Shown: positions 12,458-30,023 of the stretch, piece after piece
Position numbering within the stretch: position 1 is the stretch's first letter
Layout: each line of letters starts with the position of its first letter
Assembly (NCBI RefSeq): GCF_000025665.1
Contig: NC_013926.1
Location: 960,001 to 992,000, forward strand
Reading direction: 5' to 3'
Origin: Aciduliprofundum boonei T469
Lineage (GTDB): Archaea; Thermoplasmatota; Thermoplasmata; Thermoplasmatales; Aciduliprofundaceae
Length of the DNA stretch: 32,000 nt
Made by a program: the position numbers and the translations under genes
Notes under the pieces: generated by a model
Told to the model about the DNA's origin: nothing
What the model saw: the letters and a program-made list of their open reading frames with translations, nothing else
The model's database searches: none

Positions 12458-12469
12458 TTTACTACAACA

Positions 12470-12497: not shown

Positions 12498-12530
12498 GCC
12501 CCTTCTCTAACTTTCATGGAGGTAAGAAAT

Positions 12531-13193: not shown

Positions 13194-13334
13194 AGAGAGA
13201 AAGAATGCACATCCTCTACACTGCAAAGTCCTTTACTTTTTCTCTTTTTTACTTCAACGGGAAATGTAATAAATGATGTACATCCCTAAAATGCCGTGTA
13301 AATCTTATTCTCCTCGCAATTCAACGCAAATCTT

Positions 13335-13386
13335 GGACATTCCCTTATTATTTATAATAAATATATAGCAAGATAAGGAGATGTCC
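13335..13386. repeat. 14-bp imperfect inverted repeat flanking an AT-rich core (candidate oriT/operator)
   Basis: GGACATTCCCTTAT (13335-13348) pairs with ATAAGGAGATGTCC (13373-13386) at 12/14. The 24-nt loop is TATTTATAATAAATATATAGCAAG. Lies in the 451-bp non-coding gap upstream of the RHH-relaxase-T4CP operon. Confidence 0.4.
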
Positions 13387-13644
13387 AAAAATAGAGGGGA
13401 CTTGCATAAAAAATGAGTGAATTACACGATTTCTTGAATGTTCAAAATGGGCAAAATTCCTTACTGGCATGTTCAAAAATGTGGAAGTTTTTCATGGAGA
13501 GAATGGATTCAAAAGGAAATTCTTGATGTACATAATTTGAGGTTCAAATTCTCAAATTGAAAAGAGAAGTAGTGTAGAACAGGGAAAATTGAATGTTGCT
13601 AGACATAGACAATTTTAAATAGGGGTTCTAAAGAGAGAGAAGAG

Positions 13645-14145
13645 GTGATGAAAATGGAAGCGGGGCACGAACAAGCACATCTTCATATTGTACTGAGCAG
13701 CAAGTTGAAAGAGGATTTAGACACCATTGCGAGAATGAAGAACACCAGCACGAATAAGATTGTGAGAGAGGCATTGAAGCTCTATGTGCAAGAGGAGTTC
13801 TACAAGAAGGCGGGGTACATATCGAACATAGATAAGATGGTGGGCATGGCAGTGGCAACGGAGCTTTATCCAGAGCTGGAGGAGATAAAGAACAGGCTGG
13901 ACATGATTGCGGATTTTGTCCAGACACAGAGCTCACAGGTTGAAGAGTCTCCGGCTAAAGAAGAGAAGAAAGAAAAAATAGATTTTCCAAGGGTACCGGG
14001 ACTGCACTACAAGGTGGATGGAAACAATGTAATCTATGAGGACGGCTCAATCTACAATCTTTACCTTGGAGCTTGGCTGGTGACGAAAGAGGAAGTTGCC
14101 AAGTGGAAAAGGAAGAAGGAAAGAGAAAGGAATTTGCTGGGGTGA
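13645..14145 (+). CDS. ribbon-helix-helix (CopG/Arc/MetJ-type) DNA-binding protein, putative relaxosome accessory factor/regulator
   Basis: HLHIVLSSKLKEDLDTIARMKNTSTNKIVREALKLYV is a classic RHH beta-alpha-alpha segment. GAGGTGA RBS upstream; the true start may be the ATG at 13648 or 13654. Confidence 0.65.
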   Translation: MMKMEAGHEQAHLHIVLSSKLKEDLDTIARMKNTSTNKIVREALKLYVQEEFYKKAGYISNIDKMVGMAVATELYPELEEIKNRLDMIADFVQTQSSQVEESPAKEEKKEKIDFPRVPGLHYKVDGNNVIYEDGSIYNLYLGAWLVTKEEVAKWKRKKERERNLLG

Positions 14146-14149
14146 GAAA

Positions 14150-14668
14150 ATGATAACCAAAACGAAATTCTCAACAGGCAAGGATGCCGCGATAAAGTTG
14201 GCAAGGTACATAGAGAGAGGAATGAGCAATAACAGAGTTTATACAAGGTTATACTACGAATTTAAACCTGCGAATGATAGAGATTTAAAAGAGTTCGTGG
14301 AGGTTTCACGGGGAGCAGATGAGGACGTCCCTGCTGTCAGGCACATGATTATTGCACCAGAGAGGTTCTACGATGAAAGGCAACTGCATTATTTAGTTAT
14401 GAAAACATTACACGACTGGAGAATAGAGTCCAGAAACTATGGAATTAGATTTCTTTGGGGATTGCATTACAACACGGAGCATCCTCACAGCCACATAGGA
14501 ATGGTATCTCCATACTCAGAGGAGTTAGTCATGGAAAGGGAGGATCTGAAAGAATTCAACAAGATTGTGGAGGAAGTGTTTGGAGAGAAGCTCAAGAGCG
14601 AGAAGAAAATAGAGGAGGAGATGGAAAGAGAGATAAAAGAAGCGGAGGAGTTTGAGGTTGGAGTATAA
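14150..14668 (+). CDS. minimal MOBQ-like relaxase / mobilisation nuclease domain protein
   Basis: LWGLHYNTEHPHSHIGMVS resembles the relaxase histidine-triad motif (H.....(N/H)PH.H..(I/M)(I/V)S, as in RSF1010 MobA). N-terminal KFSTGKDAAIKLARYIERG resembles the catalytic-Tyr segment (..A.YI.RE). ATG at 14150 follows GGGGTGA. Confidence 0.55.
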   Translation: MITKTKFSTGKDAAIKLARYIERGMSNNRVYTRLYYEFKPANDRDLKEFVEVSRGADEDVPAVRHMIIAPERFYDERQLHYLVMKTLHDWRIESRNYGIRFLWGLHYNTEHPHSHIGMVSPYSEELVMEREDLKEFNKIVEEVFGEKLKSEKKIEEEMEREIKEAEEFEVGV

Positions 14669-16476
14669 TGCAGAGAACTGCATTGAGCCCAGAGAGCATA
14701 CACGAAGCAGAGCAGAGAAGGAAGGAAAGAGAGGAAAAGAGGTTAATTCTCTTTGTAGTCATAGGTTTATTGTTCTTCTTTCCACCCCTGTTCCTGCTCC
14801 CCTACATAATAGATTTCCTGCGTAGGAAAGATTACTCAAAAATACCCGTAAAGAGAGTTTTTGATAAAAGAAGATTGTGGAGTTTTTCCTTCCTGCTCAC
14901 TTCTTACTCTCTTTCTTACTTTCTTATCTTTCCTTTCTATGCGAGTTTGAAAAGGAACATACTCCCCTTCTGGAAACCATTTTTTTCATACCCGTTCTCC
15001 GAGTTTTTGGTGTATCCTCACTTCTCCCTTTACTCTAATCTTTACCTGTTCATCCTATACGGGTTGATAGTGCCGATAGTCATAAGCATTCCCCTTGCGG
15101 TAGTGTTGAAAAAGAAATACAGGTTGAGGATACCACCAGATAGTTTAGTAATCCCCACCAAGCAAGGAAACATCGTGATAGAGAAGTATAACACGGGAAT
15201 TATGGTTGTGGGTGCTCCCGGTTCTGGTAAAACGGAATTGATTAAACAAGTAATCTATCAATTCCCGCAAAAGAGAGATTATGTTTGGGTAATTTTCGAT
15301 CCCAAGGGAGATTATTACGAAGCGTTTGGAACGGAAAGAGACATAACTTTGAGCGTGAATGGTTCTTCTTATGCGTGGAACATATTTTGGGAGATAGACC
15401 CCGATAGAGCTACAACGGATGTTATAGAAATAGCCAAAGAGATATTTCCAATTGAAGAAAGAGGAGGAGAGGATAAGTTTTGGGTAGTGACTTCCCAGCA
15501 ACTCTTATCTGCCTTCATACTCACATTTTACAGACAGGCATTACAGACATACACGAAGTATTTCTCTGGTAAAGTGGATAGGGAGAGATTAAAAGAGTTC
15601 CTGCCCACGAACGAGGATTTCATGGATTTCATAAACCAGCTCACCATAGAACAAGCGTATAACCTCTTAGTCAATCAGGAAGATTTGAGGAGCGTTGCCG
15701 AATACATCAATCCACAAGCGATGAAACAGGCAAGTGGTGTGTGGAGCAATTTCTATTCCCGCATAAATGAGATATTCATAGGAGATTTCTACAAGACGGC
15801 AGGAAAGAGACAGATGAGCATAAGGGATTACATAGAAAATCCACAGGGTAGAAAGTTGTTCATAGAGTATAATGTGGAAACGGGAGAAGCCGTTGCACCG
15901 ATATTTAGATTGCTGGTTGATAGAGCGATAAAGTATTCCTTTGCCAGAGAAAATCAGTATAATAGGATAGGAGAGCCAAGAAAGAAATACTTTGTTATAG
16001 ATGAGTTCCAATTGATACCCAAGTTGAAAAGGTATCAGGAATTGGTGAATTTTGGACGCTCTTACTACATAACCTCAATCATAGGAATACAGAGCATAGC
16101 ACAGGTGATAGAGAAATACGGGAAGGATTCCGCAAATGCGGTAGTTGCCGGACACGCCTATTTGTTTGCCCTCCGTGCCTACGATAGTGCCTCCTCTCAA
16201 TTGATACGCTCAAGGATTGGAAAGAAACAGGTATGGCAGAGAGAACCCCAGCACATACAGGTTCAAGGCAGAGGAGTTTATGTTGCCGATAAGTATTCCA
16301 CAACGGAGTATTTCCCGATTAGTGAGGAGCATTTGAGAACCATGCCCGTTGGACAATGTATAATCGTCACTCCCGACGGATTTAGAGAAGTCAATCTCTA
16401 CACTTTCCAGCAGGGTAAAAGGATAATTGCGGAATTGTTGAAAATGTATAATCTTGGTTATTCTTCTCTCCTTTGA
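14668..16476 (+). CDS. type IV coupling protein (VirD4/TraG/TraD-like ATPase) with N-terminal transmembrane region
   Basis: Hydrophobic N-terminal ~150 aa, Walker A VVGAPGSGKTE, Walker B YFVIDEFQLIP, then FGRSYYITSIIGIQSIAQVIEKYG, which is T4CP-like. The start overlaps the relaxase stop (TAATG). Confidence 0.65.
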   Translation: MQRTALSPESIHEAEQRRKEREEKRLILFVVIGLLFFFPPLFLLPYIIDFLRRKDYSKIPVKRVFDKRRLWSFSFLLTSYSLSYFLIFPFYASLKRNILPFWKPFFSYPFSEFLVYPHFSLYSNLYLFILYGLIVPIVISIPLAVVLKKKYRLRIPPDSLVIPTKQGNIVIEKYNTGIMVVGAPGSGKTELIKQVIYQFPQKRDYVWVIFDPKGDYYEAFGTERDITLSVNGSSYAWNIFWEIDPDRATTDVIEIAKEIFPIEERGGEDKFWVVTSQQLLSAFILTFYRQALQTYTKYFSGKVDRERLKEFLPTNEDFMDFINQLTIEQAYNLLVNQEDLRSVAEYINPQAMKQASGVWSNFYSRINEIFIGDFYKTAGKRQMSIRDYIENPQGRKLFIEYNVETGEAVAPIFRLLVDRAIKYSFARENQYNRIGEPRKKYFVIDEFQLIPKLKRYQELVNFGRSYYITSIIGIQSIAQVIEKYGKDSANAVVAGHAYLFALRAYDSASSQLIRSRIGKKQVWQREPQHIQVQGRGVYVADKYSTTEYFPISEEHLRTMPVGQCIIVTPDGFREVNLYTFQQGKRIIAELLKMYNLGYSSLL

Positions 16477-16501
16477 AAACTTCGTGAGCATGTTTTTATA
16501 C
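16477..16501 (+). promoter_or_regulatory. conserved promoter element, copy 3 (AAACTTCGTGAGCATGTTTTTATAC)
   Basis: Same ACTTCGTGAG core plus a TTTTTATA box. The ATG at 16523 is ~22 nt downstream. Confidence 0.4.
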
Positions 16502-16522
16502 TCTAACTACAAACTCTTCTGT

Positions 16523-17650
16523 ATGAGCAGAGCTACAAAAGCTGCATTAATAATATCAATATTCCTTGCAATATTTGCAGGTGTTGTAGCAACCCATGAA
16601 GGAGCTCCTGCGAGTGATACTTTATGCATTTCAACTTACATGTTGGTAATTGGGTTTGCATTTTTCTGGTTTGCCTTCAAGTTTGCAGATGCTATGTGGA
16701 AAGGAGAGAAAAAAGTATGGAGATGGCTCAACGATGAGCCAGAGCCGAAAAAGACGAAGGCACTTCCAGCAAAGAGTGAGGATGAAATGATGCTGTATGA
16801 AAGCGATAGAGAGCATAGAACTTATTTCTGGAAAGATTATGTTATCACCGTTGGAACTGGACACTATTTTATGATGAGCAACATGGAAATCCCTTACAAC
16901 GGTGTTTTCATAGTGAAAGAGAAGGATTTCACGATGTTCAAGAGGGTAGATGATATAAATCTCTTTGAGGACGAGATTAAAATGATAGCCGAGAACTGTA
17001 TTGATAAGGGTGACTGCGATATTATTCTGTCGTGGAAAGGCAGTTCCGAGTTTGCATGCGCTAAAGAAGGGTATTTTATTTACTCTTATGGCATTGATTA
17101 TGCAGGATTTTTGTTCAACAACGCTGGGTTCATTCACCTGTTTGACCATGATTGTAGAGGCTTGACAAAGAACAAAGATGCGATGTTTAGATTCGTGAAA
17201 GACAACTTGAACAAGAACGAAGTGGCTTTGATATTAACTCTCCCCGCATATACCATTCTCTCTCTAAGCGCGAAAGTAGCTCACTCTATGCTTAGGATTG
17301 ATAGGGATATCTTTGAAGTGATGTTTCCAGAGGAGAAATTGAGCTACATTTACGATGTACCTTTCAAGATAAGAAACAAGAAAGAGCTTGCTACGATTGC
17401 AAACGAGGCACAGAGGTTGCACGCAGAGGTTGGCGTGGTGTTTGAGTTTGAGAATAAGATGATCATAGCTGCAAAGGCCGAGCTTGCCAGGTTTATGATG
17501 CCAGAGTCCAAGGAAAGCGATTTAAGAGAGGACATCCTTGCCATATACTACGAGGGAGATGAAAATCCAGTGGTCGTACCGGTTGAGTGGAGAGCATGGA
17601 CCAAGCATGAACTGATAAAAGCAGCAAGCGAAGTTGTTGGTTCCATGTAA
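16523..17650 (+). CDS. membrane-anchored hypothetical protein
   Basis: ATG at 16523 preferred over the track start at 16454, which lies upstream of the promoter element. Two N-terminal hydrophobic helices (AALIISIFLAIFAGVV, YMLVIGFAFFWFAF) precede a ~300-aa soluble domain with no recognised motif. Confidence 0.55.
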   Translation: MSRATKAALIISIFLAIFAGVVATHEGAPASDTLCISTYMLVIGFAFFWFAFKFADAMWKGEKKVWRWLNDEPEPKKTKALPAKSEDEMMLYESDREHRTYFWKDYVITVGTGHYFMMSNMEIPYNGVFIVKEKDFTMFKRVDDINLFEDEIKMIAENCIDKGDCDIILSWKGSSEFACAKEGYFIYSYGIDYAGFLFNNAGFIHLFDHDCRGLTKNKDAMFRFVKDNLNKNEVALILTLPAYTILSLSAKVAHSMLRIDRDIFEVMFPEEKLSYIYDVPFKIRNKKELATIANEAQRLHAEVGVVFEFENKMIIAAKAELARFMMPESKESDLREDILAIYYEGDENPVVVPVEWRAWTKHELIKAASEVVGSM

Positions 17651-17720: not shown

Positions 17721-18279
17721 ACTCCAAAACCACATGGTACTTCTTCTACTTGATAGGATAAAGAGAGAGGGAATAATAACAGAAGTGTTTCCACACCACA
17801 TGGTACTTCTTCTACTGATTGAAAATGATATATGTTTGAGGTGAGAAAAATGGTTTCCACACCACATGGTACTTCTTCTACGGAGTTTGGGATGAAATAA
17901 ATAAAAAAGTGGAGAATAGGTTTCCACACCACATGGTACTTCTTCTACGTAATCTACAAAAAGATAAACAATAAATTCGTATTGGTTTCCACACCACATG
18001 GTACTTCTTCTACTGATTGAAAATGATATATGTTTGAGGTGAGAAAAATGGTTTCCACACCACATGGTACTTCTTCTACAGATATGGCAAAGGAAATAAG
18101 CAAAGTTATTGAAATTGTTTCCACACCACATGGTACTTCTTCTACCTTAACTGATGAAAACATAGATAAAATCGTTGGAAACGTTTCCACACCACATGGT
18201 ACTTCTTCTACTATCTACAATGAAGATACTGATGAGCTTGTTGCAATTATGTTTCCACACCACATGGTACTTCTTCTAC
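17721..18279 (-). CRISPR. CRISPR array 1: 9 repeats, 8 spacers
   Basis: 29-nt repeat GTTTCCACACCACATGGTACTTCTTCTAC (+ strand) at 17721 (degenerate), 17787, 17853, 17920, 17985, 18051, 18117, 18183 and 18251. Spacers are 36-39 nt. The leader on the 18280 side and the degenerate repeat at the far end imply - strand transcription; the functional repeat GTAGAAGAAGTACCATGTGGTGTGGAAAC would give the 8-nt handle GUGGAAAC. Confidence 0.97.
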
Positions 18280-18536
18280 CAAGATTAACAGATATAGTAA
18301 TACACTGGGTTTATTTAAACATTTTTAGAGCCATTTTGCGTCAAGTCTCCAATAAACCCATGAGTATATAAACTCCTGACGCAATATAAAGATTTTTTAT
18401 ATTTTTATTCTATTTTTCCCTTTGCAAGTAAAACCTGCTTATTCCTTGTTCTACTGAACACAAAAATCATAAAAATACAAAATATAATAACTTTTATCTT
18501 TCAATCTTTATTTTCTTTTAAATACTCCTGACGCAA
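18280..18536 (-). promoter_or_regulatory. CRISPR-1 leader (257 bp) with two TTGCGTCAGGAG(T)+TATA promoter-like modules
   Basis: ~93% identical by manual alignment to 24133-24389. On the - strand, TTGCGTCAGGAG-TTTATATA lies at 18384-18365 and TTGCGTCAGGAGTATTTAAAA starts at 18536. Inverted repeats: TGGGTTTATT/AATAAACCCA (18306-15 / 18351-60) and TTGCGTCA/TGACGCAA (18336-43 / 18377-84). Confidence 0.8.
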
Positions 18537-18545
18537 AATGAAATT

Positions 18546-18809
18546 TTAGAAGATCATGTCCGTTGTTCCTTTCTCTATCCCTATGTTTATCACTTTCAAG
18601 TACTTCTCGCTGGGAAGTACATAGATCGTTACAGAATCATAATCCTCCTCTATAATACCCTTTATTCCGTCCTTTATGGCTTGGAGCTGGCTTTGGGTTA
18701 TATCACCTCGGAACACGGAATTTTGTATCCAGTGCAGGTAAGAACGCAGAAATTTGTTGACCTTGTTTACCCTTTCTTCTGCAACATCATAAACTATTAT
18801 CACATGCAT
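18546..18809 (-). CDS. cas2: CRISPR-associated endoribonuclease Cas2
   Basis: MHVIIVYDVAEERVNKVNKFLRSYLHWIQNSVFRGDIT is a canonical Cas2 N-terminus. The ATG at 18809 abuts the cas1 stop, so the track start at 18848 is probably too long. Confidence 0.9.
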   Translation of the reverse strand: MHVIIVYDVAEERVNKVNKFLRSYLHWIQNSVFRGDITQSQLQAIKDGIKGIIEEDYDSVTIYVLPSEKYLKVINIGIEKGTTDMIF

Positions 18810-18810
18810 T

Positions 18811-19776
18811 CTACCACCACACCCTAAATGCCCTGTACCTCTTATCATTCATCACATGCTTCACTAGCTTGTAAGCTTCCAACCTCAAAAGCCCTCTCTG
18901 GCTCACGCTCCTTTTTAACCTCCTGTGATAAACAGTGGAGCTCATTCGGTCTTCCCATTTTCTTATGTATTTTCTCTTTCCTTGCTCATTTAGAAATACA
19001 CCGTTGAACTCTTTTCTAAAATCATCCTCAGTTATTATACCGTGATTTACTATGTCATGAATGTGTCTATAAACCATCGTGGGCTTAAATACATCTGCAA
19101 TATCCAAAGATAATGAGAATCTCCTCTCTGATGGTTCGTGGAGGTAACTTATGCTCGGGTTCAAATGCGTGTGATAAATCTCGGTTAAAACTGCAGAGTA
19201 TAGAAGAGTGTTCCCAAAGGAGATCAAAGCGTTGAGCTCGTTTATTGGCGGCCTGTAATCTCTACGCTCAAGTTGGAATTTCTTTAGCGTATAATCTAAG
19301 CTCTTGTAGTAGTATCCCCAAATCTGTGCCTCTCTGTTCATAAGCTCCTCTATGCTATCTCCCTCAACTTCCACTCTTTCAATCTTTTCTATTATCTCCT
19401 CTAATTCTTTGTTGCTCTTTTTGAGATTTCTAAGGATGTTGTGCTTTATCCCCTCTATCATCTCCTTTGCTATGTACTTTCTCTTCTCCCAAAATATGTA
19501 GTGCTTTGCCTGATTTACCACAACCTCACCAGAGATACTTCTCTCCCTAGGATATAATGTGCCTTCATAATTGCCGTACATATCAAAGAAATGCACCACC
19601 ACGCCTGAGTTGAGCACATGCTTTATGGCACCAGAGCTGAAACTAACTGGAGCTATACATGTAATGTCCCTTAGGTTGTGAATTGGTATTGATCTCTTCT
19701 CTCCCTTTCTAACCAAGTATATGGTGTTTGCCTCCCTCTTTATTATAGCCTCCTTTGTGATGTATAAACTATCCAT
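18811..19776 (-). CDS. cas1: CRISPR-associated integrase Cas1
   Basis: 321 aa. Begins MDSLYITKEAIIKREANTIYLV; SISGEVVVNQAKHY and ALISFGNTLLYSAVLTEI follow the Cas1 pattern. Sits between cas4 and cas2. Confidence 0.9.
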   Translation of the reverse strand: MDSLYITKEAIIKREANTIYLVRKGEKRSIPIHNLRDITCIAPVSFSSGAIKHVLNSGVVVHFFDMYGNYEGTLYPRERSISGEVVVNQAKHYIFWEKRKYIAKEMIEGIKHNILRNLKKSNKELEEIIEKIERVEVEGDSIEELMNREAQIWGYYYKSLDYTLKKFQLERRDYRPPINELNALISFGNTLLYSAVLTEIYHTHLNPSISYLHEPSERRFSLSLDIADVFKPTMVYRHIHDIVNHGIITEDDFRKEFNGVFLNEQGKRKYIRKWEDRMSSTVYHRRLKRSVSQRGLLRLEAYKLVKHVMNDKRYRAFRVWW

Positions 19777-19780
19777 AAAA

Positions 19781-20275
19781 TCACGCCCAGCAAAGCTCTA
19801 AATACGAGCATTTTTCACATATCTTCCGCCAAACTGGTTTTGGAGGCCTTTCTTTGCCTATCTCAACCTCCATCTCTTTAAGCAAATCTTCAATCTTCTT
19901 CTCATTTTCTTCATTCAACTCAACCATTTCCGTGTACTTCTCCTCAGGAACTGCAATCTTGCCTTTAACTTCCACTCCCCTATCCTTCAGCCATTTTAAA
20001 TAAAACAATAACTGCATTCTGGCTGCGTTGAGCATCTTGGAACTTCTCTTAACCTCGTATATCCATACTTCCCCGTTCTCCTTCCTCGTGAAATCTATGG
20101 ATACACCCTCACCAAACAGATTCTTTATCTCTCCCTTGTAACTCTTTTCGTGAAGCATCTTTCCTAAGATAATGTACTCATTTTCCAATCTCACTCCTCT
20201 GTAAGAGTACCAAGCGGCCCTCTTGCACACAACATACTCATGAACCAAGCTTCCTGTAAATTCCATATTAATCAC
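19781..20275 (-). CDS. cas4: CRISPR-associated exonuclease Cas4
   Basis: 164 aa. N-terminal Cys (VVCKRAAWY), a RecB-type core (IDFTRKENGEVWIYEVKRS) and C-terminal CEKCSYLELC (CX2CX5C). Confidence 0.85.
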   Translation of the reverse strand: MINMEFTGSLVHEYVVCKRAAWYSYRGVRLENEYIILGKMLHEKSYKGEIKNLFGEGVSIDFTRKENGEVWIYEVKRSSKMLNAARMQLLFYLKWLKDRGVEVKGKIAVPEEKYTEMVELNEENEKKIEDLLKEMEVEIGKERPPKPVWRKICEKCSYLELCWA

Positions 20276-20982
20276 TCATTGTCTATGGGATTCAAAAACC
20301 CGAATCCAAGGGAGTTCTTTTCCCCTATTCCACAGTCCGTTATGAACCTGTAAAACTTGCCATATCCCTTGGGAATCCTCTTTTGAAGCAAGGACCACAC
20401 TGAGCCTATTACTATGAATGTCTTCTCATCCTTTTTTACCACCACGGAAACCTCCTTTTGAAATTGAAGCAGGTCAAAAAGGTCCTCGTCCAGCTCCAGC
20501 TCTTCATCATAGTACACATTATACTTCTTCACTGCATTATCTTTCAATCTATCCATGAAAAAGCGCATGCTTCCCCCGTCCCTGAATGAAAAGTACTTGC
20601 TCTTCTTATTATCCTTTTGAATCACCACTGGGCTTCCACTCCTAAACTTTCCTGTGGTTTTTACCTTGAACTTTTTGAGCTCTGCAACTTTCATTGGGCC
20701 ATCGGATAGGTAAATATGCTCTAAATCCCTCAATCTTGAGTAAAGCTCACCTATGAACTTGGGATTTGGCGAGGATACTATCAAGTTTTTCTCTTTATTT
20801 GGATAGAAATCTCCGGGAGGGAATAAATCGGAGTATGTGAAGAACTTAAACCCATTTTTAGAGTGCAAATCTGAGAACTCTGTTCCATCAAGGAGCGAGT
20901 ATATGGCTCCTTGAATCGTATGCTTGTTTACCTTTGAAAATGGTAAAAATTTCTCTGGCACTAGCTTAATGAGCAATCTCAT
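20272..20982 (-). CDS. cas6: CRISPR repeat endoribonuclease Cas6
   Basis: 236 aa with the C-terminal glycine-rich loop GIGEKNSLGFGFL typical of Cas6. TTTATACTATATTTT box ~20 nt upstream of the ATG. Confidence 0.85.
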   Translation of the reverse strand: MRLLIKLVPEKFLPFSKVNKHTIQGAIYSLLDGTEFSDLHSKNGFKFFTYSDLFPPGDFYPNKEKNLIVSSPNPKFIGELYSRLRDLEHIYLSDGPMKVAELKKFKVKTTGKFRSGSPVVIQKDNKKSKYFSFRDGGSMRFFMDRLKDNAVKKYNVYYDEELELDEDLFDLLQFQKEVSVVVKKDEKTFIVIGSVWSLLQKRIPKGYGKFYRFITDCGIGEKNSLGFGFLNPIDNE

Positions 20983-21019
20983 GCGTGTAATAGAGAAAAT
21001 ATAGTATAAACATTTTGTG

Positions 21020-21790
21020 TTAAACTTCGCACCTGAGCATCTTTCCGATCTCTAGTCCCATGTCTGTTGGATGAATCCAAGAAGTTTGCTTGTTGTAAAC
21101 TATTAAATTTGCCTGCTGGTATATCTGTATGAGGTAGGGTGCCATAGGCTCTTCTACGAGTGATACTCCTCCCGGCTTTAATATTCTCTTCAACCTAGCA
21201 ATATCCTCTGGAGAGTACGGTATTACAGGAATATTTATGAATTCCAACTTTGCTCCATCTGGAAATAGAAGCCTATCAAATTTCTCCCGTAGCTCTTTGT
21301 ACATCTCTATTCTCTTCTCTAAATCCTTCTCGCTGAACCTCATTATGTCCTCCATTATCTGTTGCTGATAATCGTTGAATGCTCCAATCTCCTTGTTCAC
21401 TACATGGTAAATGCCAGTCACTCCGAACATTGAACCAAGAAGAGCTGCCATAACCGTTACCTCTTTTCTACCACCAGCAACATTCAAAAATATCCTATCT
21501 GTGCCTATTTTGAATTTCTCTATGCATATTGCCTTTGTTATCTCCTTGGCTGCAAGCAGGGCATCTTCCTCCGAAGCTATGTCATTCTTTGGGAGCACAT
21601 GCACATGTATTCTCAACTTGGGATAATGAACCTTGAGAGCTGCCTCAACCAATCTAGTGCCTGCTAGCACGAACTCATCCTTTGTTGGAAGGAGTATTAC
21701 ATCGCTCAGATACTCGCTCTCTAAGAACCTCACCATCTCGGTTATAACCGAGGGTGATTTTCCAACAGGTGCAATCATAGCCACTTTCAT
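21020..21790 (-). CDS. CARF-fold protein (Cas_NE0113/Csx14-like motifs) with possible C-terminal winged helix; candidate cOA sensor, ring nuclease or regulator
   Basis: MKVAMIAPVGKSPSVITEMVRFL and LNVAGGRKEVTVMAALL match my recollection of the G.SP.V(V/I)TE and AGGRK motifs of that family. ATG at 21790 overlaps the csx1 stop (ATGA). The C-terminal ~70 aa are wHTH-like (weak evidence). Confidence 0.55.
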   Translation of the reverse strand: MKVAMIAPVGKSPSVITEMVRFLESEYLSDVILLPTKDEFVLAGTRLVEAALKVHYPKLRIHVHVLPKNDIASEEDALLAAKEITKAICIEKFKIGTDRIFLNVAGGRKEVTVMAALLGSMFGVTGIYHVVNKEIGAFNDYQQQIMEDIMRFSEKDLEKRIEMYKELREKFDRLLFPDGAKLEFINIPVIPYSPEDIARLKRILKPGGVSLVEEPMAPYLIQIYQQANLIVYNKQTSWIHPTDMGLEIGKMLRCEV

Positions 21791-23034
21791 TTCCAATCCT
21801 CCAGGTACTTTATCAGGGTAGAGCAATCTTTCAATATACTTTTTGTGGAGTTCTTTAACTCTTCCAAATTCAAGCTATCCTTGCTCATACCGCTGTGGGC
21901 TATCAAGTTTCTCTTTGATGTTATCAGATTCCACAGGGTTATCAAATTCACCCCGCTCTTTCTCTCTATCTCATCCACATTACTTCTAAGGTAATAATAA
22001 ACTCCGTTCTTCTCTATTTTCTCCCCCCTCTTCTCCATCGCCATACCTGTTATTCCCTTCTCAACTTCAATTCTATTCTCCCTCTCTAGCCATAGGGAAT
22101 TGTCAAAGTTGGATAGGTAAAAAACGAAGTTTACTATCCATTCTCTCAAATTCTCTAAGCTCTCTCCCAATAGCCCTATCCCTGTTTGGTACTCTGCAAT
22201 CAGCAACTGCTTTCTCAGAGTTTCCTTGCTGAGCTTATCGTAGCAATCCTCGCATCCAAATTTTTCAAATATGGTGAAGTCCCTGTAGAGCAAAGTCAAT
22301 GGCTTAAAGTACTTTTCTAGCTCTTCTTTGACATCTGGAGAGAGTTTAGAGAGATTATATGCGTATTTCATCACATCCCTTATTTGATTTAGGTATATGC
22401 CCCTGCTTATCCTCTCTAACATATTTGCGTACTTTTTGGTATATCTCATACTTGGCTTTGATTCCCTAGCGTACATCTGATTTTGCCACTCTTTCATTAT
22501 TGAGGATATACCCTCGTTTCTACCGTAATCCTTGAGATCTCTGGCAGAGTATATCCACTCTGAAAAAACCAGAGCATCGGAGAGGTCAAAAATTGGGACA
22601 TAATCACCATCTCTGGACTCGTAGGCACCGTAGTAAATTCCGCGAATCTTTATGCCCCTAGCAACCTGAAGGTAGGTCATTATAACGAAGGATAAGAAAG
22701 GTATATGGCGAAAAGCGTGCGTTATATCCAGTATCACTTCATCTCCCTGCTCTAAATTATCGTTGAGTTTGTCTAAAATCTCCCAAACATCCCTCTCCTC
22801 TCTTGGAATGGAAATCTTTATTGCTTGAATTTTCTCATCTTGCGCTTCCCTTTTCAAACTTTCCAAGTTCTTCATCCCTTCCTCCGTGGTTATTACGAGC
22901 CATTTATCTGGATTGAAAAACTCACCGAGGGCGCGAGAAACGAAGGAAGTTTCAAAATAGTTATCCTTCGAGCCGAGGTAATACTTCACCCTTGAATATT
23001 TCCCCGTGCCCATAAAGGATACCAAAACTAGCAC
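21787..23034 (-). CDS. csx1: Csx1-family CARF + HEPN ribonuclease (DxTHG-type)
   Basis: N-terminal LVLVSFMGTGKY, then VILDITHAFRHIPF (DxTH(G/A) motif), and C-terminal RNLIAHSG (HEPN Rx4H). GTG at 23034 follows GGGGTGG and is preferred over the TTG at 23055. Confidence 0.8.
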   Translation of the reverse strand: MLVLVSFMGTGKYSRVKYYLGSKDNYFETSFVSRALGEFFNPDKWLVITTEEGMKNLESLKREAQDEKIQAIKISIPREERDVWEILDKLNDNLEQGDEVILDITHAFRHIPFLSFVIMTYLQVARGIKIRGIYYGAYESRDGDYVPIFDLSDALVFSEWIYSARDLKDYGRNEGISSIMKEWQNQMYARESKPSMRYTKKYANMLERISRGIYLNQIRDVMKYAYNLSKLSPDVKEELEKYFKPLTLLYRDFTIFEKFGCEDCYDKLSKETLRKQLLIAEYQTGIGLLGESLENLREWIVNFVFYLSNFDNSLWLERENRIEVEKGITGMAMEKRGEKIEKNGVYYYLRSNVDEIERKSGVNLITLWNLITSKRNLIAHSGMSKDSLNLEELKNSTKSILKDCSTLIKYLEDWK

Positions 23035-23097
23035 AAAACCACCCCACTTCTGCAAATTTCTTCCATGCCGTTCTATCCTCTTTTTCTATATTAATAT

Positions 23098-24132
23098 TTT
23101 CACAAACCATTCGGTTCTTCTTCTACAGGCTGACATCCAGCACTTTTGGGATTATGCGCAGGGGGTGTTTCCACACCACATGGTACTTCTTCTACGGGAG
23201 CAAGAAGATTATGACGGGAGGATGATAAGGATGTTTCCACACCACATGGTACTTCTTCTACTCTAAAGCAGAAAATTACAGCAATTCTTGATTCATTGTT
23301 TCCACACCACATGGTACTTCTTCTACGAAATAAAGAAATACTACGGACTCAAAGGCTACAATAGCCCAGGTTTCCACACCACATGGTACTTCTTCTACAC
23401 TACGATTTACTCAGGGAATTTATGGGAAATATACGGTTTCCACACCACATGGTACTTCTTCTACATAGAATAACAAAATACATATCAAAGCACAAGGAAT
23501 TAGTTTCCACACCACATGGTACTTCTTCTACATAAACGAAAATAGTGAATCTTCATGGGAAGATAGATGTTTCCACACCACATGGTACTTCTTCTACTAG
23601 ATAGACAAATGTTTAATATGTTGTTATCAGATATAATGTTTCCACACCACATGGTACTTCTTCTACTAGATAGACAAATGTTTAATATGTTGTTATCAGA
23701 TATAATGTTTCCACACCACATGGTACTTCTTCTACGGATATATAACAAAAAAGGATGGCTATAACATATCAGGTTTCCACACCACATGGTACTTCTTCTA
23801 CGAATACAGTCTAATAAACAATGTATTAAAAGAGTTTTATCGTTTCCACACCACATGGTACTTCTTCTACTGGAATGAAAGAGGAAGCGGTTAAAACCGC
23901 AATTGAGATTTTGTTTCCACACCACATGGTACTTCTTCTACAGAATATAATCAGGCGTTAAAAGAATACGAGGATATGGTTTCCACACCACATGGTACTT
24001 CTTCTACCGTGAGGGACAAGAGAGCGACCGCAAGAGCAATAGGTTTCCACACCACATGGTACTTCTTCTACTAGCGTGGGCGTATTGGATGAGATATTGA
24101 ATAGTTTCCACACCACATGGTACTTCTTCTAC
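23098..24132 (-). CRISPR. CRISPR array 2: 16 repeats, 15 spacers
   Basis: Same 29-nt repeat at 23098 (degenerate, ~8 mismatches), 23167, 23233, 23298, 23370, 23436, 23503, 23569, 23638, 23707, 23773, 23842, 23913, 23979, 24043 and 24104. Spacers are 32-43 nt. Leader on the 24133 side. Confidence 0.97.
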
Positions 24133-24389
24133 CTAGATTAACAGATATAGTAATACACTGGGTTTATTTAAACATTTTTAGAGCCATTTTGCGTCAAGTC
24201 TCCAATAAACCCATGAGTATATAAACTCCTGACGCAATATAAAGTGTTTTTATATTTTTATCCTATTTTTCTCTTTGCAAGTAGAACCTGCTCGTATCTT
24301 GTTTTCCTGAATGCAAAAATCATAAAAATGCAAAATATAATAATTTTTATCTTTCAATCCTTATTTTCTTTTAAATACTCCTGACGCAA
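24133..24389 (-). promoter_or_regulatory. CRISPR-2 leader (257 bp), near-duplicate of the CRISPR-1 leader
   Basis: One mismatch in the repeat-proximal ~112 nt and ~18 differences overall versus 18280-18536 (manual count). Same motif set, offset by +5853. Confidence 0.8.
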
Positions 24390-24457
24390 TTTCTACTCTT
24401 AGGTTTTGCATCTCAAAGTATCCTGAGAATTTCAAGTATATTTTGGGGCCTTAAGAG

Positions 24458-24487: not shown

Positions 24488-24518
24488 ATTTGAGAGGATA
24501 AAAATCCTCTCTCAAATT
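24487..24518 (-). terminator. hairpin immediately at the csm5 stop codon
   Basis: AATTTGAGA(GGA)-TAAAAA-(TCC)TCTCTCAAATT forms a 9+3 bp stem with a 2-nt bulge and overlaps the TGA at 24518-24520. Confidence 0.4.
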
Positions 24519-25660
24519 CAATCCAATTTTATCCAGCCAAGAGAGCTGCCATCGGATAGAACATGGCGGCTCTTGGGATACGAGAAAATGTTCGCTCTGT
24601 GCCGAGATGCAGCGCTCAAAATCCTTTGAAGAATCTCTCTAGGGATATTATTCCGCATGTAAATCCATAGGGTCTTGTATGGAGAGCCCGTGCCAAATCC
24701 TATTCTGGCATTTGCACCATCAACGGCAAGCACTTTTCCTTGGCTCTTCTCAAAATTCTTTATATCCCCAACATACTCGTCCAGCGCCTCTTTGATATGA
24801 GCAATCATCTTCTTCTCTGCACCCTCAATATCAGATAAATCATCTTCTCTCAACCCTAAGAGCTCCAGCTTTTGAGGTAGTACCGGATATTCTCTGCTGC
24901 CAAGAGAACTCTTCACCTGCGGAGAAAGGGATATCTTCCCAATGAATTTCCCTTCAACAACCTCTAAAAGCGTATAAGAGCCCCTTCTACCACGGGTTTC
25001 CACTATTGCCTTGTCTATCCATATATCGTAGGATTCCGGGTAAAAATCTCCAACCAAAATATACTTGAACACATCGTACTTTGCATCATATCTAAATTTA
25101 TTTCTCCTCACATTCCCTGTGTAAACAACGAGCTTTTCAAATCTTGAACCAATTCTATCCCTCCTTCTATCCTCGTAATCATCTCCAAGTTTCCTGATCC
25201 CAATTTCATGTATTCCCCTCTGCATTGCCTCCCATAGATTGTATTCTCTAATTTCTCCATCAACGGATATCTCAAAGTACCAGCCGTTATCTTTAAGGTA
25301 CTTAACCATCAGAGCGGTTCTCAAAAATCCCTTTAAACTACTTCCGGGTATGTATGGAATGTCTCCAGCAGAATCTTTTATGCATTCCATTATCCTGTCT
25401 TCCAATCTCTTTATATATACACCTTCTTTGAGCTTTGCAGAGTACCTATCTTTCCCTCTCTTCAATATCTCCATTATGGCACTCAAGTTCTTTCTATCAA
25501 GTTCCTTGGTATATTTCTTGAGAAGCTCAACATCTCCTTCAAATAATTTATCTAAATTCACGCGGTGAAGTTCGTTTCCATCCATATATGAATCCATTAG
25601 CGTGTAATAACTTCCACTTCCAATATGCACGGGGCTCTTGGTATTTATTTGCATTCTCAT
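24518..25660 (-). CDS. csm5: type III-A RAMP protein Csm5
   Basis: 380 aa. Begins MRMQINTKSPVHIGSG and contains IPYIPGSSLKGFLRTAL (RAMP G-rich/IPGSS motif). Last gene of the csm operon. Confidence 0.8.
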   Translation of the reverse strand: MRMQINTKSPVHIGSGSYYTLMDSYMDGNELHRVNLDKLFEGDVELLKKYTKELDRKNLSAIMEILKRGKDRYSAKLKEGVYIKRLEDRIMECIKDSAGDIPYIPGSSLKGFLRTALMVKYLKDNGWYFEISVDGEIREYNLWEAMQRGIHEIGIRKLGDDYEDRRRDRIGSRFEKLVVYTGNVRRNKFRYDAKYDVFKYILVGDFYPESYDIWIDKAIVETRGRRGSYTLLEVVEGKFIGKISLSPQVKSSLGSREYPVLPQKLELLGLREDDLSDIEGAEKKMIAHIKEALDEYVGDIKNFEKSQGKVLAVDGANARIGFGTGSPYKTLWIYMRNNIPREILQRILSAASRHRANIFSYPKSRHVLSDGSSLGWIKLD

Positions 25661-25670
25661 CTAAACCACC

Positions 25671-26513
25671 TTATATCACGACCGGAACTCCAACCACCGA
25701 GTACTTGGGATGAACATCAACAACCCTACCAAGTGGAGAGTAATCTGACGGAATGACGGAGCCCTCAACTAATGCTCGCATTTTTGGTATCACTTTTCCA
25801 TCCTTGGTGTATCCAGTTATCAGCTTTACCTCGTACCTGCATCTCTCAAAGGGAAAACCCCCTAGTTCTTCTTGGCTCGGTATGTATTTTGAAAGGATCA
25901 TGCTATACATTCCATCATTCTCTAACTCATAATCTTCCAAGCTGACCTTGAAATGCCCAAACCCAGTGCTTCTCTTCTTGGATATACCCATGTCCCCCAA
26001 GTACCTGAAAACCGCCAGTACCCTATCTTTTATCTCATTGCTCATTTTCACCAGTATCCAAGCTTTGTGCGTGTACAAGCCAGCTGTCTTGTAATAAATC
26101 GTGGATGAGCCACCGTATCTCCCTATAGAAACTCCGGGCAACTCAACGGTTTTTATACCTGCAGTATCGTCACCTATGATTTCTTCAACTCTTTCCTTGG
26201 AATATTTTCCCTCTTTCAAAGATTTTATTGCTAATCTCTCATCAACAAACTTTTTCTTTTTAAATCTCTTGAAATCTTTGTACTCTAGTTTTTCCGTTGG
26301 AAGCATGGGCTTGAACACATAGAACTTACCCTCCTTTGTAGGCATGGGTGATGATACTCTTAGCTCTCCATTTTTAATTGTCTCTAAAATTTCAGAAGCA
26401 CTACCATAGAGTTCGGAATATGCATTAATGATAGAGCCGTAAATCTTTATTGAATCAAACTCTCCAGCGAATGCTCCTTCAGGGTTGAGGATTAACCTGT
26501 ACCAAGAGGTCAT
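25671..26513 (-). CDS. csm4: type III-A Cas5-family RAMP protein Csm4
   Basis: Follows csm3. C-terminal part includes the glycine-rich motif ISKKRSTGFGHF. Start at M22 (26513, MTSWYRLILNPEGAF) preferred; the track start at 26576 would overlap csm3 by 98 nt. Confidence 0.75.
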   Translation of the reverse strand: MTSWYRLILNPEGAFAGEFDSIKIYGSIINAYSELYGSASEILETIKNGELRVSSPMPTKEGKFYVFKPMLPTEKLEYKDFKRFKKKKFVDERLAIKSLKEGKYSKERVEEIIGDDTAGIKTVELPGVSIGRYGGSSTIYYKTAGLYTHKAWILVKMSNEIKDRVLAVFRYLGDMGISKKRSTGFGHFKVSLEDYELENDGMYSMILSKYIPSQEELGGFPFERCRYEVKLITGYTKDGKVIPKMRALVEGSVIPSDYSPLGRVVDVHPKYSVVGVPVVI

Positions 26514-27297
26514 CCAAAGAACCTCCCTCGTAAATCTTCTTTCCTTCTGTACTTCCCTCGGAACTTCCCTTTTCATAGTAAGCTACATCTCTCTCTAAAA
26601 TTTCCAAATCTTTGAATGACAATTTTCCATAGCCCCTGGAGCCAAAGCCACCGAGGTAATTGTCCTCTAGCATTCTCATGCCCTCAAGGAGCATGGAGAG
26701 CAGAGATTTTTCATTATCTCCCTCGTATATTGAGAGTACAATCTCAAAGGTGAACTCAGATTCTGCAGGTATCCTTTCCACAGGTCTTGGATTCGCAGCA
26801 CTCGTGAGTCTGTTTATTGCATTCTCCATCTTGACCTCTGTACCTCCAACTATATCTGGGTACTCTTTCCACCTCCTTATTGTATCTTCCGTGGGATAAG
26901 CATCTCTTACAATTACACGGGACAAATTTTCTTCAAATCCAGAAGTTTCTGCAGGTATACCAAAAAGCATTGGAATTATATTAGCTTTTGATGTAGAATA
27001 TTTTATGCAATTTTTATTGCCTATCTTTACATACCCGTTTGGACATTTATCGGTATCCTTTGTCATAGTTATATCTGCATAGGTAATCTCCAAAAGTGAC
27101 CTGATTTTTCCCTTTAAACTGCTTCCCGGGATATACGGGATCTCTATCAACCTCCCCTCATGCATCTTGTAGGTTGTTATAACGGGATTATCCATCCCCC
27201 CAATTTCCACGGTTTCTTTCAATCCACCTATGTGCAACCCAGTAATGAGTTTTATCTTCCCTCGTATCACTAAATTCTTAACAAATTTCTTACCCAT
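26479..27297 (-). CDS. csm3: type III-A Cas7-family backbone/RNase subunit Csm3
   Basis: GKIKLITGLHIGGLKETVEIGGMDNPVI ... IPYIPGSSLKGKIRSLLE is the canonical Csm3 N-terminus, including the Asp of the DNPV segment. Confidence 0.85.
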   Translation of the reverse strand: MGKKFVKNLVIRGKIKLITGLHIGGLKETVEIGGMDNPVITTYKMHEGRLIEIPYIPGSSLKGKIRSLLEITYADITMTKDTDKCPNGYVKIGNKNCIKYSTSKANIIPMLFGIPAETSGFEENLSRVIVRDAYPTEDTIRRWKEYPDIVGGTEVKMENAINRLTSAANPRPVERIPAESEFTFEIVLSIYEGDNEKSLLSMLLEGMRMLEDNYLGGFGSRGYGKLSFKDLEILERDVAYYEKGSSEGSTEGKKIYEGGSLDDLLVQVNPQP

Positions 27298-27310
27298 TCA
27301 TCTCACCTCC

Positions 27311-27754
27311 TTATTTACCACCATGGTACTTGTGGTAGGCCACTATCGATTCAAAAACCCTCTCAAAGTTCAAAAATATCTGCTTTGGATCTTCACTATC
27401 GGTAATTTTCTCAACCATTTTAGAAACGAAATCAGCAAATTCCTCTGGCACATTATTCCTTCCTTTAGCATACTTTATTGCTGGCACTATTTGCCAAAGT
27501 TCCGGTTCCAATTTTTCCCAACTTTCCCTTTGAAGTCTATAATCTATATTTTTAACTACATCAAAGAATTTTCTCAATTGTGTAGTCTTCAAAGAGTCAT
27601 GGAAGTATTTTGTCTGGGTGATTTGATCTATTAATCCACCATCTTTAAGTAGTCTCTTCCAATCTGGAGTCTCTCTGACGATCTCTCTTTTTATTTCTTC
27701 AAAATTTCTTTTTACTATTTCTTTTTCCTCTTTCTTATTCTTATTTGAATACAT
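27311..27754 (-). CDS. csm2: type III-A small subunit Csm2 (Cas11)
   Basis: 147 aa and helical. TTQLRKFFDVVKNI is the typical Csm2 motif. Lies between cas10 and csm3. Confidence 0.8.
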   Translation of the reverse strand: MYSNKNKKEEKEIVKRNFEEIKREIVRETPDWKRLLKDGGLIDQITQTKYFHDSLKTTQLRKFFDVVKNIDYRLQRESWEKLEPELWQIVPAIKYAKGRNNVPEEFADFVSKMVEKITDSEDPKQIFLNFERVFESIVAYHKYHGGK

Positions 27755-27755
27755 C

Positions 27756-30023
27756 CTAACTCACCTCTTTTCCATACTTTCTACTCATAACCCATATTGA
27801 CACTCCAACTGGAATGTGCTTGAAAATACCCTCTTGGGATAATTTATCAAGCAAATCGTATCTACTTCCTTTCCTACGAGCAAAATAATACCTCAAATAT
27901 GGCTTTGGACTGGGAATAACAACATCTCCTTTCCCCAGAGGTTTATCTGCAAAGAATGAAGGACTAAGCTTATGGAGAACCAAGAGAACATGCGATAAAG
28001 ATGATGAAATTTCTCCTTTTTTCTGCGCTTCCCAAAGTTCGTTGCCCATGTCCACCTGTGCTTTGAAATCGTCCCAAGACAATACATCTTCAAAGATCTT
28101 TATCTTATTTCCTCTCTCTACGCACATGCTCACATCTGCAGAGTAATCCTTTGCATCTCCAAGATGCTCTTCAGCAACATTAACAGCCCTGCGAATAGGA
28201 AATTTCTCATCAAAGAAAACTATAGATGCGGATATATGCAAATTCTCATTACCCCCTGTCCACTTGGCAAAGGAATCTCGCACATCCAACGCAAATTTAA
28301 TTATCTCATCGTACCTGCCCACTGCTGTAAGGTCATCCCCACCAGAGAATATAACATAAATGTTGTTCTTCTTAGCAATATTGTTAACTTCCACGGAGAA
28401 AAACAGGTCCATCAAGAAAGAAAGGGTTGATATCCTGCTTATTCTCCTCAGATCTTCTTTGAAACCTTCCTTGAATATCTCACCTAAGCAATCAACATCC
28501 GCTTTGAAAATTCCCATCTTTGTAGTGGCGTTAGAGGTCATTCTATCTTCTAAGGAAGTGCCGGGAGCTAAAAGCTTCGAGATGCTAAGGACTTTGCCAT
28601 ATACACTGGGAATGTATGTTTTCAAGAGTTTGAACCCTCTAACCTTACCCACCGAAGGTATGTTGAAATCCTCTATAGAAAACACTTCATCATCTTCGTA
28701 TCCATAGAAATCCTCCGATATTGTGTAAGAAATTCTGAGATCTCCATATTTGAATGTGAAATGTCCATCCTTGCCTAAGCTTCTTATCAAATACTGGCCT
28801 TTTCCGATGAATCCCCCAAGCTCCGCTGTTCTCTGGCAGGTATCACATATCCCATTTGAATCATTCACATAATGCACTCCACAAACTGGGCATATGTATT
28901 TATCTCTTGAAGGGCTAACATAGAAATCCTCATCTCTCACAAACTCAATATATTTCTTGGACTTTGACTCTTCGTCCATCTTTGAATGCAATTCATACAG
29001 TATTTCGCTGAAATTGTTCAAGTTATCCTTGTGAATCCAAGCAATATTGAGGTATAGCCTTCCAAATTCGTTCAAGAGGAACTCATTCACCTTTCTCTTC
29101 ATTTCCACTAGCTTCTCGTCTATGCCGTCTACATTAGGAACAAGCATCAGGAAATTTCCACCGCTTTGCCATAGGATATTGAAATCATACAAGTCAAGCT
29201 CTTCTTGTATATACCTCACTGCAGAATCTATTATTAAGTTTATCAGCAAGCTCCTTCCACGCATTCTTTTAGTACCTTTCTCATCCACAACCTGCTCTTC
29301 GCCACCTTTTAAATTGTAAAATATAAAATTTTGTATCCCAGATAAATCACCCATTATAATTGTGTACTTCTCTTTTTTATTGCTCCTGTACTTGCATAGT
29401 GCTATGGCAGCCGTGGTTTTTAGATGGTCGTATAGAGGGATATCTGGGACGCTAACATAGATGGCCGATGGTACATACTTGGTGTATTTCAAAAGAATGT
29501 AGAGGAGTGTGTTTATATCCTCCTTGCCTTGAATGGTAAGGTTTTTTAATTCTCTCTTTAGCTTGTCTTCTATTGAACCGTATAGAACTTGGGAGTTCGT
29601 TGCATATGTACTTGGATACTGGAGTTTTCTCTCAAGTGAAGCCAAAGAATAACCTACCTTCCCCTTGCTTCCAAATCCTATGTCTATATAGGAATAAACC
29701 GATATGAGTGGAGTTTGGTTGATATTTGTATCTATACCCTCAGACTCCATTCTATCGTGCTCTGCCGATTCCCCATCCGAGTCCTTCAGTATTTTCAAAA
29801 GCTCCGGGTATTTTCCCTCGTAAGATATTTGATGATGAGAAATCACAAGCTTAATGGTTTCATCTTTTATCTCTGGACTAGCATTCAGGTTCTCATTCAA
29901 AAATTCAGCGCCGAAGACTTCGTGTTTCTTCTCTTTGAACCTTGTAGAAGCCCTTTGATTCAATTTTCCTATATCATGCAAAAGAGCAGATAAAACCAGA
30001 ACTTTTTCTTGGATATCGTTCAT
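27756..30023 (-). CDS. cas10: Cas10/Csm1 with intact HD nuclease and GGDD cyclase motifs
   Basis: N-terminal LSALLHDIGK (HD), Zn finger CPVCG..(12)..CDTCQ, and IFSGGDDLTAVG (GGDD codons at 28332-28343). 755 aa. AAAATTAAATA box ~30 nt upstream. Confidence 0.9.
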   Translation of the reverse strand: MNDIQEKVLVLSALLHDIGKLNQRASTRFKEKKHEVFGAEFLNENLNASPEIKDETIKLVISHHQISYEGKYPELLKILKDSDGESAEHDRMESEGIDTNINQTPLISVYSYIDIGFGSKGKVGYSLASLERKLQYPSTYATNSQVLYGSIEDKLKRELKNLTIQGKEDINTLLYILLKYTKYVPSAIYVSVPDIPLYDHLKTTAAIALCKYRSNKKEKYTIIMGDLSGIQNFIFYNLKGGEEQVVDEKGTKRMRGRSLLINLIIDSAVRYIQEELDLYDFNILWQSGGNFLMLVPNVDGIDEKLVEMKRKVNEFLLNEFGRLYLNIAWIHKDNLNNFSEILYELHSKMDEESKSKKYIEFVRDEDFYVSPSRDKYICPVCGVHYVNDSNGICDTCQRTAELGGFIGKGQYLIRSLGKDGHFTFKYGDLRISYTISEDFYGYEDDEVFSIEDFNIPSVGKVRGFKLLKTYIPSVYGKVLSISKLLAPGTSLEDRMTSNATTKMGIFKADVDCLGEIFKEGFKEDLRRISRISTLSFLMDLFFSVEVNNIAKKNNIYVIFSGGDDLTAVGRYDEIIKFALDVRDSFAKWTGGNENLHISASIVFFDEKFPIRRAVNVAEEHLGDAKDYSADVSMCVERGNKIKIFEDVLSWDDFKAQVDMGNELWEAQKKGEISSSLSHVLLVLHKLSPSFFADKPLGKGDVVIPSPKPYLRYYFARRKGSRYDLLDKLSQEGIFKHIPVGVSIWVMSRKYGKEVS

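Follow-up and report, generated by a model that had tools for sequence, protein, structure and literature searches.

In Aciduliprofundum boonei T469, a CRISPR spacer has been identified which matches, at 30 of 37 positions, a small gene of the integrated element lying beside the CRISPR-cas locus. Our analysis suggests, with moderate confidence, that this spacer is an old memory of an unsampled mobile element carrying a gene of the WEQEDYDG family, and that the resident gene is a diverged homologue and not the source. The DNA analysed is one stretch of 32,000 nucleotides (NC_013926.1, positions 960,001 to 992,000; G+C 39%), referred to here as the window. The most conserved stretch of the gene family would have supplied the spacer, and this would account for the 30/37 match. 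Imperfect spacer matches to integrated elements are a known phenomenon, and the present case, in a system of known type, is an ordinary one. The pair of spacer and resident gene was not found described in the literature on A. boonei or on type III mismatch rules and is apparently newly described. The features involved are as follows.

23196..23232, minus strand: CRISPR-2 spacer, GGGAGCAAGAAGATTATGACGGGAGGATGATAAGGAT on the plus strand, between perfect 29-nt repeats at 23167-23195 and 23233-23261
6724..6760, minus strand: partial protospacer-like site in ORF 6591..6782, 30/37 against the spacer
6591..6782, minus strand: target gene of 63 aa, WEQEDYDG family, an accessory gene of the element

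On realignment, the spacer and the reverse complement of 6724-6760 were again found to be identical at 30/37 positions without gaps, and at 24 of the first 25, as an earlier sequence-only reading of this DNA had reported. That reading placed the site inside the 63-aa ORF 6591..6782 (product MSKWVAKWEQEDYDGRYIKL...), which was borne out, and the ORF is a real gene in view of its homologues, a ribosome-binding site (GGAGGT) located 7 nt upstream, and ATGA overlaps with both neighbours in a tightly packed operon. The spacer match is in frame with this gene. Two of the seven differences (CAA/CAG and AGG/AGA) are synonymous third positions, three fall in one codon (ATG/TAC; Y to M), and the others are one K/R and one L/M change; two synonymous and a few codon changes of this kind fit coding divergence.

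Chance similarity of purine-rich sequences was considered as an explanation, since purine-rich spacers and coding strands raise the background similarity, but it was rejected and its probability is regarded as negligible. In 3000 composition-preserving shuffles of the spacer the highest count was 27 identities, and 28 or more never occurred. The best identities of the other 22 spacers anywhere in the window were 20-26, and a binomial calculation across all spacers and positions gives an expectation of about 3e-6 for such a match. Moreover, the match keeps the reading frame, its changes being synonymous or conservative, and the spacer matches the same motif, on the sense strand, in four independent family genes. 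The original statement that the match lies far beyond chance was thus upheld. Within the window no exact or near-exact self-target of the spacer was found, the best site being the 30/37 one.

The 63-aa protein was found to belong to a new small-protein family, common to TraG/LtrC-type elements and virus-like contigs. A full HMMER scan with the protein retrieved 17 cluster representatives at E < 1e-3, although a word-indexed search with it gave no homologue. No Pfam match was obtained, its PHROGs matches were weak and to families of unknown function, and the family was not found in an IMG/VR search. AlphaFold predicted a confident beta-beta-alpha-beta fold (pLDDT 90), for which no significant structure neighbours were present in PDB or BFVD. 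In the family alignment W-E-Q-E-D-Y-D-G is the most conserved part, and it is encoded by the 25 well-matched nucleotides (W-EQEDYDG-R); the residues that follow it vary among family members (RYIKL, RRIIL, KIVTL, HIMTL).

This conservation was found to have a direct bearing on the interpretation of the match. The spacer also matches family genes on virus-like contigs, always on the sense strand: 28/37 in L019-L021, 27/37 in L016 and 25/37 in L017 and L022. L016 and L017 carry YopX and RecU genes with weak tape-measure or tail matches, and L019-L021 carry PCNA-like, RlaP and methyltransferase genes. The homologues on virus-like contigs are 34-49% identical to the resident protein, those reaching 27-28/37 being about 45% identical, and between family members with 33-49% protein identity, 23-29 of the 37 positions in this segment agree. 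Since genes whose proteins are about 45% identical also reach 27-28/37, the 30/37 match does not identify a close-relative donor; it indicates a donor whose family gene encoded the canonical motif. The sole syntenic orthologue in a related element (L014/L015) is 54% identical, has WEQNSGER in place of the motif and gave, over the matched 37 nt, 16/37 against the spacer and 14/37 against the resident gene, and the gene is absent from six other related element contigs. In the 195 kb of DNA compared, the only spacer matches of at least 70% identity were those of spacer 23196-23232 at the WEQEDYDG motif, and the other 20 unique spacers had no match in the element or in its relatives, whether compared as DNA or as peptides.

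The orientation of the guide depends on the direction in which the two arrays are read, and the arrays and their leaders are listed below.

23098..24132, minus strand: CRISPR-2 array, 16 repeats and 15 spacers, with a degenerate terminal repeat at 23098-23126 (8 mismatches)
24133..24400, minus strand: CRISPR-2 leader, conserved with the CRISPR-1 leader
17721..18279, minus strand: CRISPR-1 array, 9 repeats and 8 spacers, with a degenerate terminal repeat at 17721-17749 (5 mismatches)
18280..18545, minus strand: CRISPR-1 leader, between the cas2 stop codon and the array

Both arrays share a 29-nt repeat, GTTTCCACACCACATGGTACTTCTTCTAC on the plus strand, which ends in ...GGAAAC on the minus strand. 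Repeats giving an 8-nt tag usually end in GGAAAC at the 3' end. The leaders, about 265 bp long, lie on the high-coordinate side of both arrays and are identical at 245 of 268 nt, and at 109 of the 110 nt beside the first repeat, whereas the terminal repeats at the low-coordinate ends are degenerate (5 and 8 mismatches). All cas genes in the window are on the minus strand. Further, 20 of the 21 unique spacers are purine-rich on the plus strand (mean 0.65; p = 2e-5), and the sense strands of the window genes are likewise purine-rich (mean 0.61, with 82% of 37-nt sense windows above 0.5), so that the guides appear to be antisense to coding strands. Reading of the arrays from the minus strand is thus supported by the conserved leader, the degenerate trailer repeats, the cas strand, the GAAAC repeat end and the spacer purine bias. 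The sequence-only reading had proposed minus-strand transcription from the leader position and the degenerate terminal repeat, and the last three features now add to its case. An Rfam search gave no match, hence no CRISPR-DR family by which to orient the arrays.

The same reading had counted 23 spacers, which is correct as a total, but two of these are duplicates and the unique spacers number 21. Its designation of the matching spacer as spacer 2 of CRISPR-2 holds from the trailer end; counted from the leader it is the 14th of 15, which indicates an old acquisition. The duplicates are CRISPR-1 spacers 2 and 5, identical and non-adjacent (17816-17852 = 18014-18050), and CRISPR-2 spacers 8 and 9, which form an exact tandem 69-bp repeat-spacer duplication (23598-23637 = 23667-23706). 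The array-wide strand bias is strong, in a system that lacks a reverse transcriptase-Cas1 fusion. Strand bias of type III arrays arises through selection (PMC7515739), and the bias toward antisense guides is the pattern that such selection would be expected to leave.

In the CRISPR-2 leader, TTTATATA was read on the minus strand, and a scan of bacterial type flags the same stretch. The sequence TTGCGTCAGGAGT occurs in two exact copies per leader, 152 nt apart (18372-18384, 18524-18536, 24225-24237 and 24377-24389, minus strand), and nowhere else in the window; none of 100 shuffles gave four matches. A factor specific to the leaders may bind there. At 24460-24488, upstream of the CRISPR-2 leader and just past the csm5 stop codon, an orphan degenerate repeat, GTTCCACACCATTGCGGTATTTCTTCTAA, is present, which may be left over from an older array or from duplication of a leader.

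The arrays adjoin a set of cas genes with the following features.

27756-30023, minus strand: cas10/csm1, Pfam Cas10 palm2, Csm1_B and HD domains
27311-27754, minus strand: csm2, PF03750 Csm2_III-A, E = 4.7e-21
26479-27297, minus strand: csm3, RAMP match, 272-aa protein
25671-26576, minus strand: csm4, weak Csm4_C match, 301-aa protein
24518-25660, minus strand: csm5, RAMP match, 380-aa protein
21787-23055, minus strand: Csx1-like CARF/HEPN gene, containing RNLIAH
21020-21826, minus strand: NE0113-type CARF gene
20272-20982, minus strand: cas6, Cas6_C match, 236-aa protein
19781-20275, minus strand: cas4
18811-19776, minus strand: cas1
18546-18848, minus strand: cas2

The locus is arranged in blocks, namely the effector genes (24518..30023), CRISPR-2, the accessory and adaptation genes (18546..23055) and CRISPR-1. 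The Csm2 small subunit separates type III-A from III-B, and the earlier assignment to a type III-A (Csm) system was confirmed by the PF03750 match of Csm2, by a Cas10 whose motifs are intact (HD at residue 16, GGDD at residue 561), and by the presence of Csm3-Csm5 and Cas6. No type I effector genes were found in the window. Judged by its genes, the type III-A locus is apparently complete and has an adaptation module of its own. The Csm systems of Staphylococcus epidermidis and Streptococcus thermophilus, whose RNA targeting depends on transcription and tolerates mismatches, share with it the Cas10 HD and GGDD motifs, Csm2 to Csm5, Cas6 and the CARF/HEPN accessories. They also share, at the level of type III-A immunity, the mRNA-antisense guide, a target flank that is unpaired with the 5' tag and the spacer strand bias. 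The A. boonei locus differs from them in being archaeal (DHVE2), in its Cas4-Cas1-Cas2 module and in having two arrays, and the sole match within the window is the imperfect 30/37 one. It documents an archaeal type III-A locus, apparently intact and correctly oriented, with nearly all spacers antisense to coding strands.

Since the arrays are read from the minus strand, the crRNA of spacer 23196-23232 would be complementary to the mRNA of gene 6591..6782. The guide, which is the reverse complement of the plus strand, reads AUCCUUAUCAUCCUCCCGUCAUAAUCUUCUUGCUCCC, and given the inferred array orientation it is complementary to the transcribed sense RNA of this gene; the earlier claim to this effect follows from the array orientation and the gene strand. 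By established type III biology, Cas6 would cut the repeat and leave an 8-nt 5' tag (GUGGAAAC), and the predicted crRNA would run from the tag ...GUGGAAAC into the guide start AUCCUUAUCAUCC... The Csm complex would then pair this guide with the sense mRNA of any element expressing a matching gene, and the pairing would activate the Cas10 HD nuclease and cyclase and, after these, the CARF/HEPN effector.

Paired with the resident mRNA, the guide has 30 positions in Watson-Crick pairing and a G:U pair at +30. The six mismatches (+2, +4 and +9 to +12) are all confined to guide positions +1 to +12, close to Cas10. The target 3' flank AACGAAAG is complementary to the crRNA 5' tag at 1 of 8 positions, and being unpaired with the tag it would give no self signal. 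Synthesis of cOA in vitro is most sensitive to mismatches at crRNA +1 to +7, the region which activates Cas10 (PMC9704408, PMC8376896), and the resident site lacks uninterrupted pairing there. In vivo, on the other hand, tolerance varies with the sequence context, interference is lost only with whole mismatched segments, and type III-A interference tolerated a fully mismatched first segment in some contexts (PMC9704408). We infer that the resident mRNA is probably a weak, sub-threshold or tolerated target, against which stands the in-vivo tolerance of a mismatched first segment (PMC9704408). The resident transcript is possibly silent as well. A resident element that is at most a weak target could coexist with the spacer. 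The situation resembles that of self or near-self spacers against integrated prophages or plasmids, including the conditional tolerance of silent integrated elements by type III systems, as the spacer resembles an element gene on the same chromosome and the two coexist. Unlike in self-targeting, the match here is inexact and is explained by a conserved family motif, and the resident element is probably not the donor.

The sequence-only reading had taken the spacer to come most likely from a close relative of the resident element. On this view the type III-A system would specifically police the element family; this would be a special case of the explanation preferred here, and we regard it as possible but doubtful. 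A donor within the element family is quite possible in itself, judging from the resident gene being the best known match (30 vs 28), from the third-codon positions in the motif (6/8 identical to the spacer in the resident gene, 4/8 in L019) and from the spacer G+C of 43%, which is closest to that of the element. In G+C and synonymous codons, the viral homologues are slightly more distant from the spacer than the resident gene is. The element family is demonstrably resident in Aciduliprofundum, and in L014/L015 the homologue occupies the same slot, right after the LtrC-like gene. Nevertheless, about 45% identical homologues on unrelated virus-like contigs come within two to three positions of the resident match (27-28/37), while the syntenic orthologue falls to 16/37 and six related element contigs are without the gene. 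These results do not sustain the attribution to a close relative. The proposed link between the type III-A system and the element family fared no better, as the motif is common to unrelated elements and the other unique spacers match neither the element nor its relatives. Alternatively, the spacer may have been taken from the resident element or its direct ancestor, with the target escaping afterwards by mutation of the Cas10-proximal part of the site. The element adjoins the CRISPR-cas locus, and 6 of the 7 differences fall in the 12 nt pairing with crRNA +1 to +12; the hypergeometric probability of such clustering is about 0.005 if nucleotides are counted and about 0.05 if codons are. The divergent part is, however, the naturally variable part of the family, and such clustering is expected without selection; two more, synonymous differences lie outside the clustered part, and type III escape usually proceeds via deletion and not point mutation (PMC7515739). 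Escape of this kind is therefore considered very unlikely.

Under the preferred explanation, an old memory of an unsampled element with a WEQEDYDG-family gene, the donor may have been either a variant of the resident plasmid-like element or a virus, and the resident element would be at most a weak target, hence its coexistence with the spacer. A further suggestion is that the spacer has been kept because it targets a conserved accessory-gene stretch and gives cross-reactive immunity against unrelated invaders, the resident element being checked too. We consider this unlikely. If it were true, a single guide, aided by type III mismatch tolerance, would act on a gene common to archaeal plasmid-like elements and tailed-virus-like genomes of hydrothermal vents, and the resident element would be held down whenever its LtrC-proximal operon is switched on. 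The result also calls for caution in assigning spacers to targets. A highly significant imperfect match to a neighbouring mobile element (30/37, with 24 of 25 contiguous) may reflect a conserved protein motif common to unrelated elements, and such a match neither identifies the donor nor proves a specific conflict between host and element.

The true protospacer was searched for in several collections, and no exact protospacer of spacer 23196-23232 was found in those searched. The spacer search proposed in the sequence-only reading gave no 37/37 source in the window or in the phage, plasmid and viral contig collections. A codon-degenerate pattern of the first 25 nt of a 37/37 donor (GGGARCARGARGAYTAYGAYGGNMG) had no match in the viral, metagenome and genome contig collections. 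The search with GGGARCARGARGAYTAYGAYGGNMG also missed the window's own gene and the JGI contigs L020 and L021, all of which contain the pattern; the collections are thus incomplete or masked, and the donor negatives are weak. The 21 unique spacers, concatenated and compared by blastn at E up to 1, had no match in the phage and plasmid collections, and four further spacer cores had none in the viral contig collection. No match of the repeat core (TCCACACCACATGGTACTTCTTC) was obtained in the genome or metagenome contig collections, and hence there were no sister arrays in which more spacers could be checked against the element. Similarly, the window gave no match to plasmids (near mode) and the element none to phages (distant mode).

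The element which carries the target gene has been characterized from the features listed below.

3072..8110, minus strand: core operon of the element, divergent from the plus-strand arm 8332..17650
6779-8110, minus strand: LtrC-like HEXXH protein (UniRef name, weak zincin Pfam matches)
6012-6594, minus strand: three tandem paralogous small helical proteins of 66, 65 and 63 aa, each starting MSLxRxxxK...
3659-4570, minus strand: Cas4-like PD-(D/E)XK nuclease
within 3072..8110, minus strand: proteins of 99, 297, 66 and 126 aa
8332..17650, plus strand: other arm of the element, with McrB/McrC cargo (8332-12017), a zinc-ribbon protein and a 398-aa membrane protein
13645-14145, plus strand: ribbon-helix-helix protein
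14096-14668, plus strand: relaxase-like protein, weak (MobL and Relaxase, E = 0.003-0.009)
14668-16476, plus strand: TraG/VirD4 coupling protein (TrwB_AAD_bind, T4SS-DNA_transf, TraG-D_C), 90% identical to that of L002
contig L011, 8493-9455, some 190-1150 bp to the left of window position 1: tyrosine integrase of 320 aa (Phage_integrase), at the presumed left end of the element, then housekeeping genes

From this gene content the element can be described as an integrated plasmid-like element of about 19 kb which would be mobilizable, or conjugative with undetected pore genes. The G+C of its core (3072-8110) is 42-45% vs 32-36% in the flanks, and its right end adjoins the CRISPR-1 trailer. The MobL match is weak in the L005 homologue of the relaxase-like protein too, and by sequence the LtrC-like protein gave no relative whose structure has been solved. 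Mating-pore genes (VirB4 or others), which would set an ICE apart from an IME, were absent from the Pfam-scanned ORFs of the window. A comparison of the integrase flank with the right end gave no convincing att direct repeats of at least 13 nt, and no tRNA gene was found. The single archaeal ICE found by Guglielmini et al. 2011 is in A. boonei (PMC3158045). With the class of integrative conjugative or mobilizable elements (ICE/IME; Guglielmini et al. 2011, PMC3158045) the present element shares the integrase, the TraG/VirD4 coupling protein, the LtrC-like HEXXH protein and a variable cargo slot, occupied here by McrBC, besides the protein with weak relaxase matches; unlike an ICE, it has neither VirB4 or mating-pore genes inside the window nor any convincing att repeats.

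The target gene itself, next after the LtrC-like gene, can be regarded as a fast-evolving or often exchanged accessory gene, as it is 54% identical to its counterpart in L014 (353-541) whereas its neighbours are 79% (LtrC-like C-terminus) and 87% (99-aa protein) identical, and it is absent in most relatives. Its position after the LtrC-like gene and its fast divergence would fit an early-expressed anti-defence gene. Genes of the operon end in ...EVEL or ...EMEV, with the GGAGGT ribosome-binding site of the next gene overlapping the preceding coding sequence.

Deep-sea vent MAG and metagenome contigs share the backbone of the element (LtrC-like protein 83-89%, TraG 90%), and their cargo differs from McrBC. 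The integrase is 23% identical to that of the related L002, as against 90% for TraG, a contrast suggestive of a swapped integration module. In Aciduliprofundum, the integrated elements of TraG/LtrC type thus form a family whose cargo slot is swappable. The slot between the element arms, which holds McrBC here, contains 249-aa and 1011-aa proteins in L002 (5802-9583) and a PAS/GAF histidine kinase with an M48 peptidase in L005 (4304-8742), and it looks like a hotspot for defence or cargo genes. The related elements have two of the small helical-protein paralogues, as compared to three in the present one.
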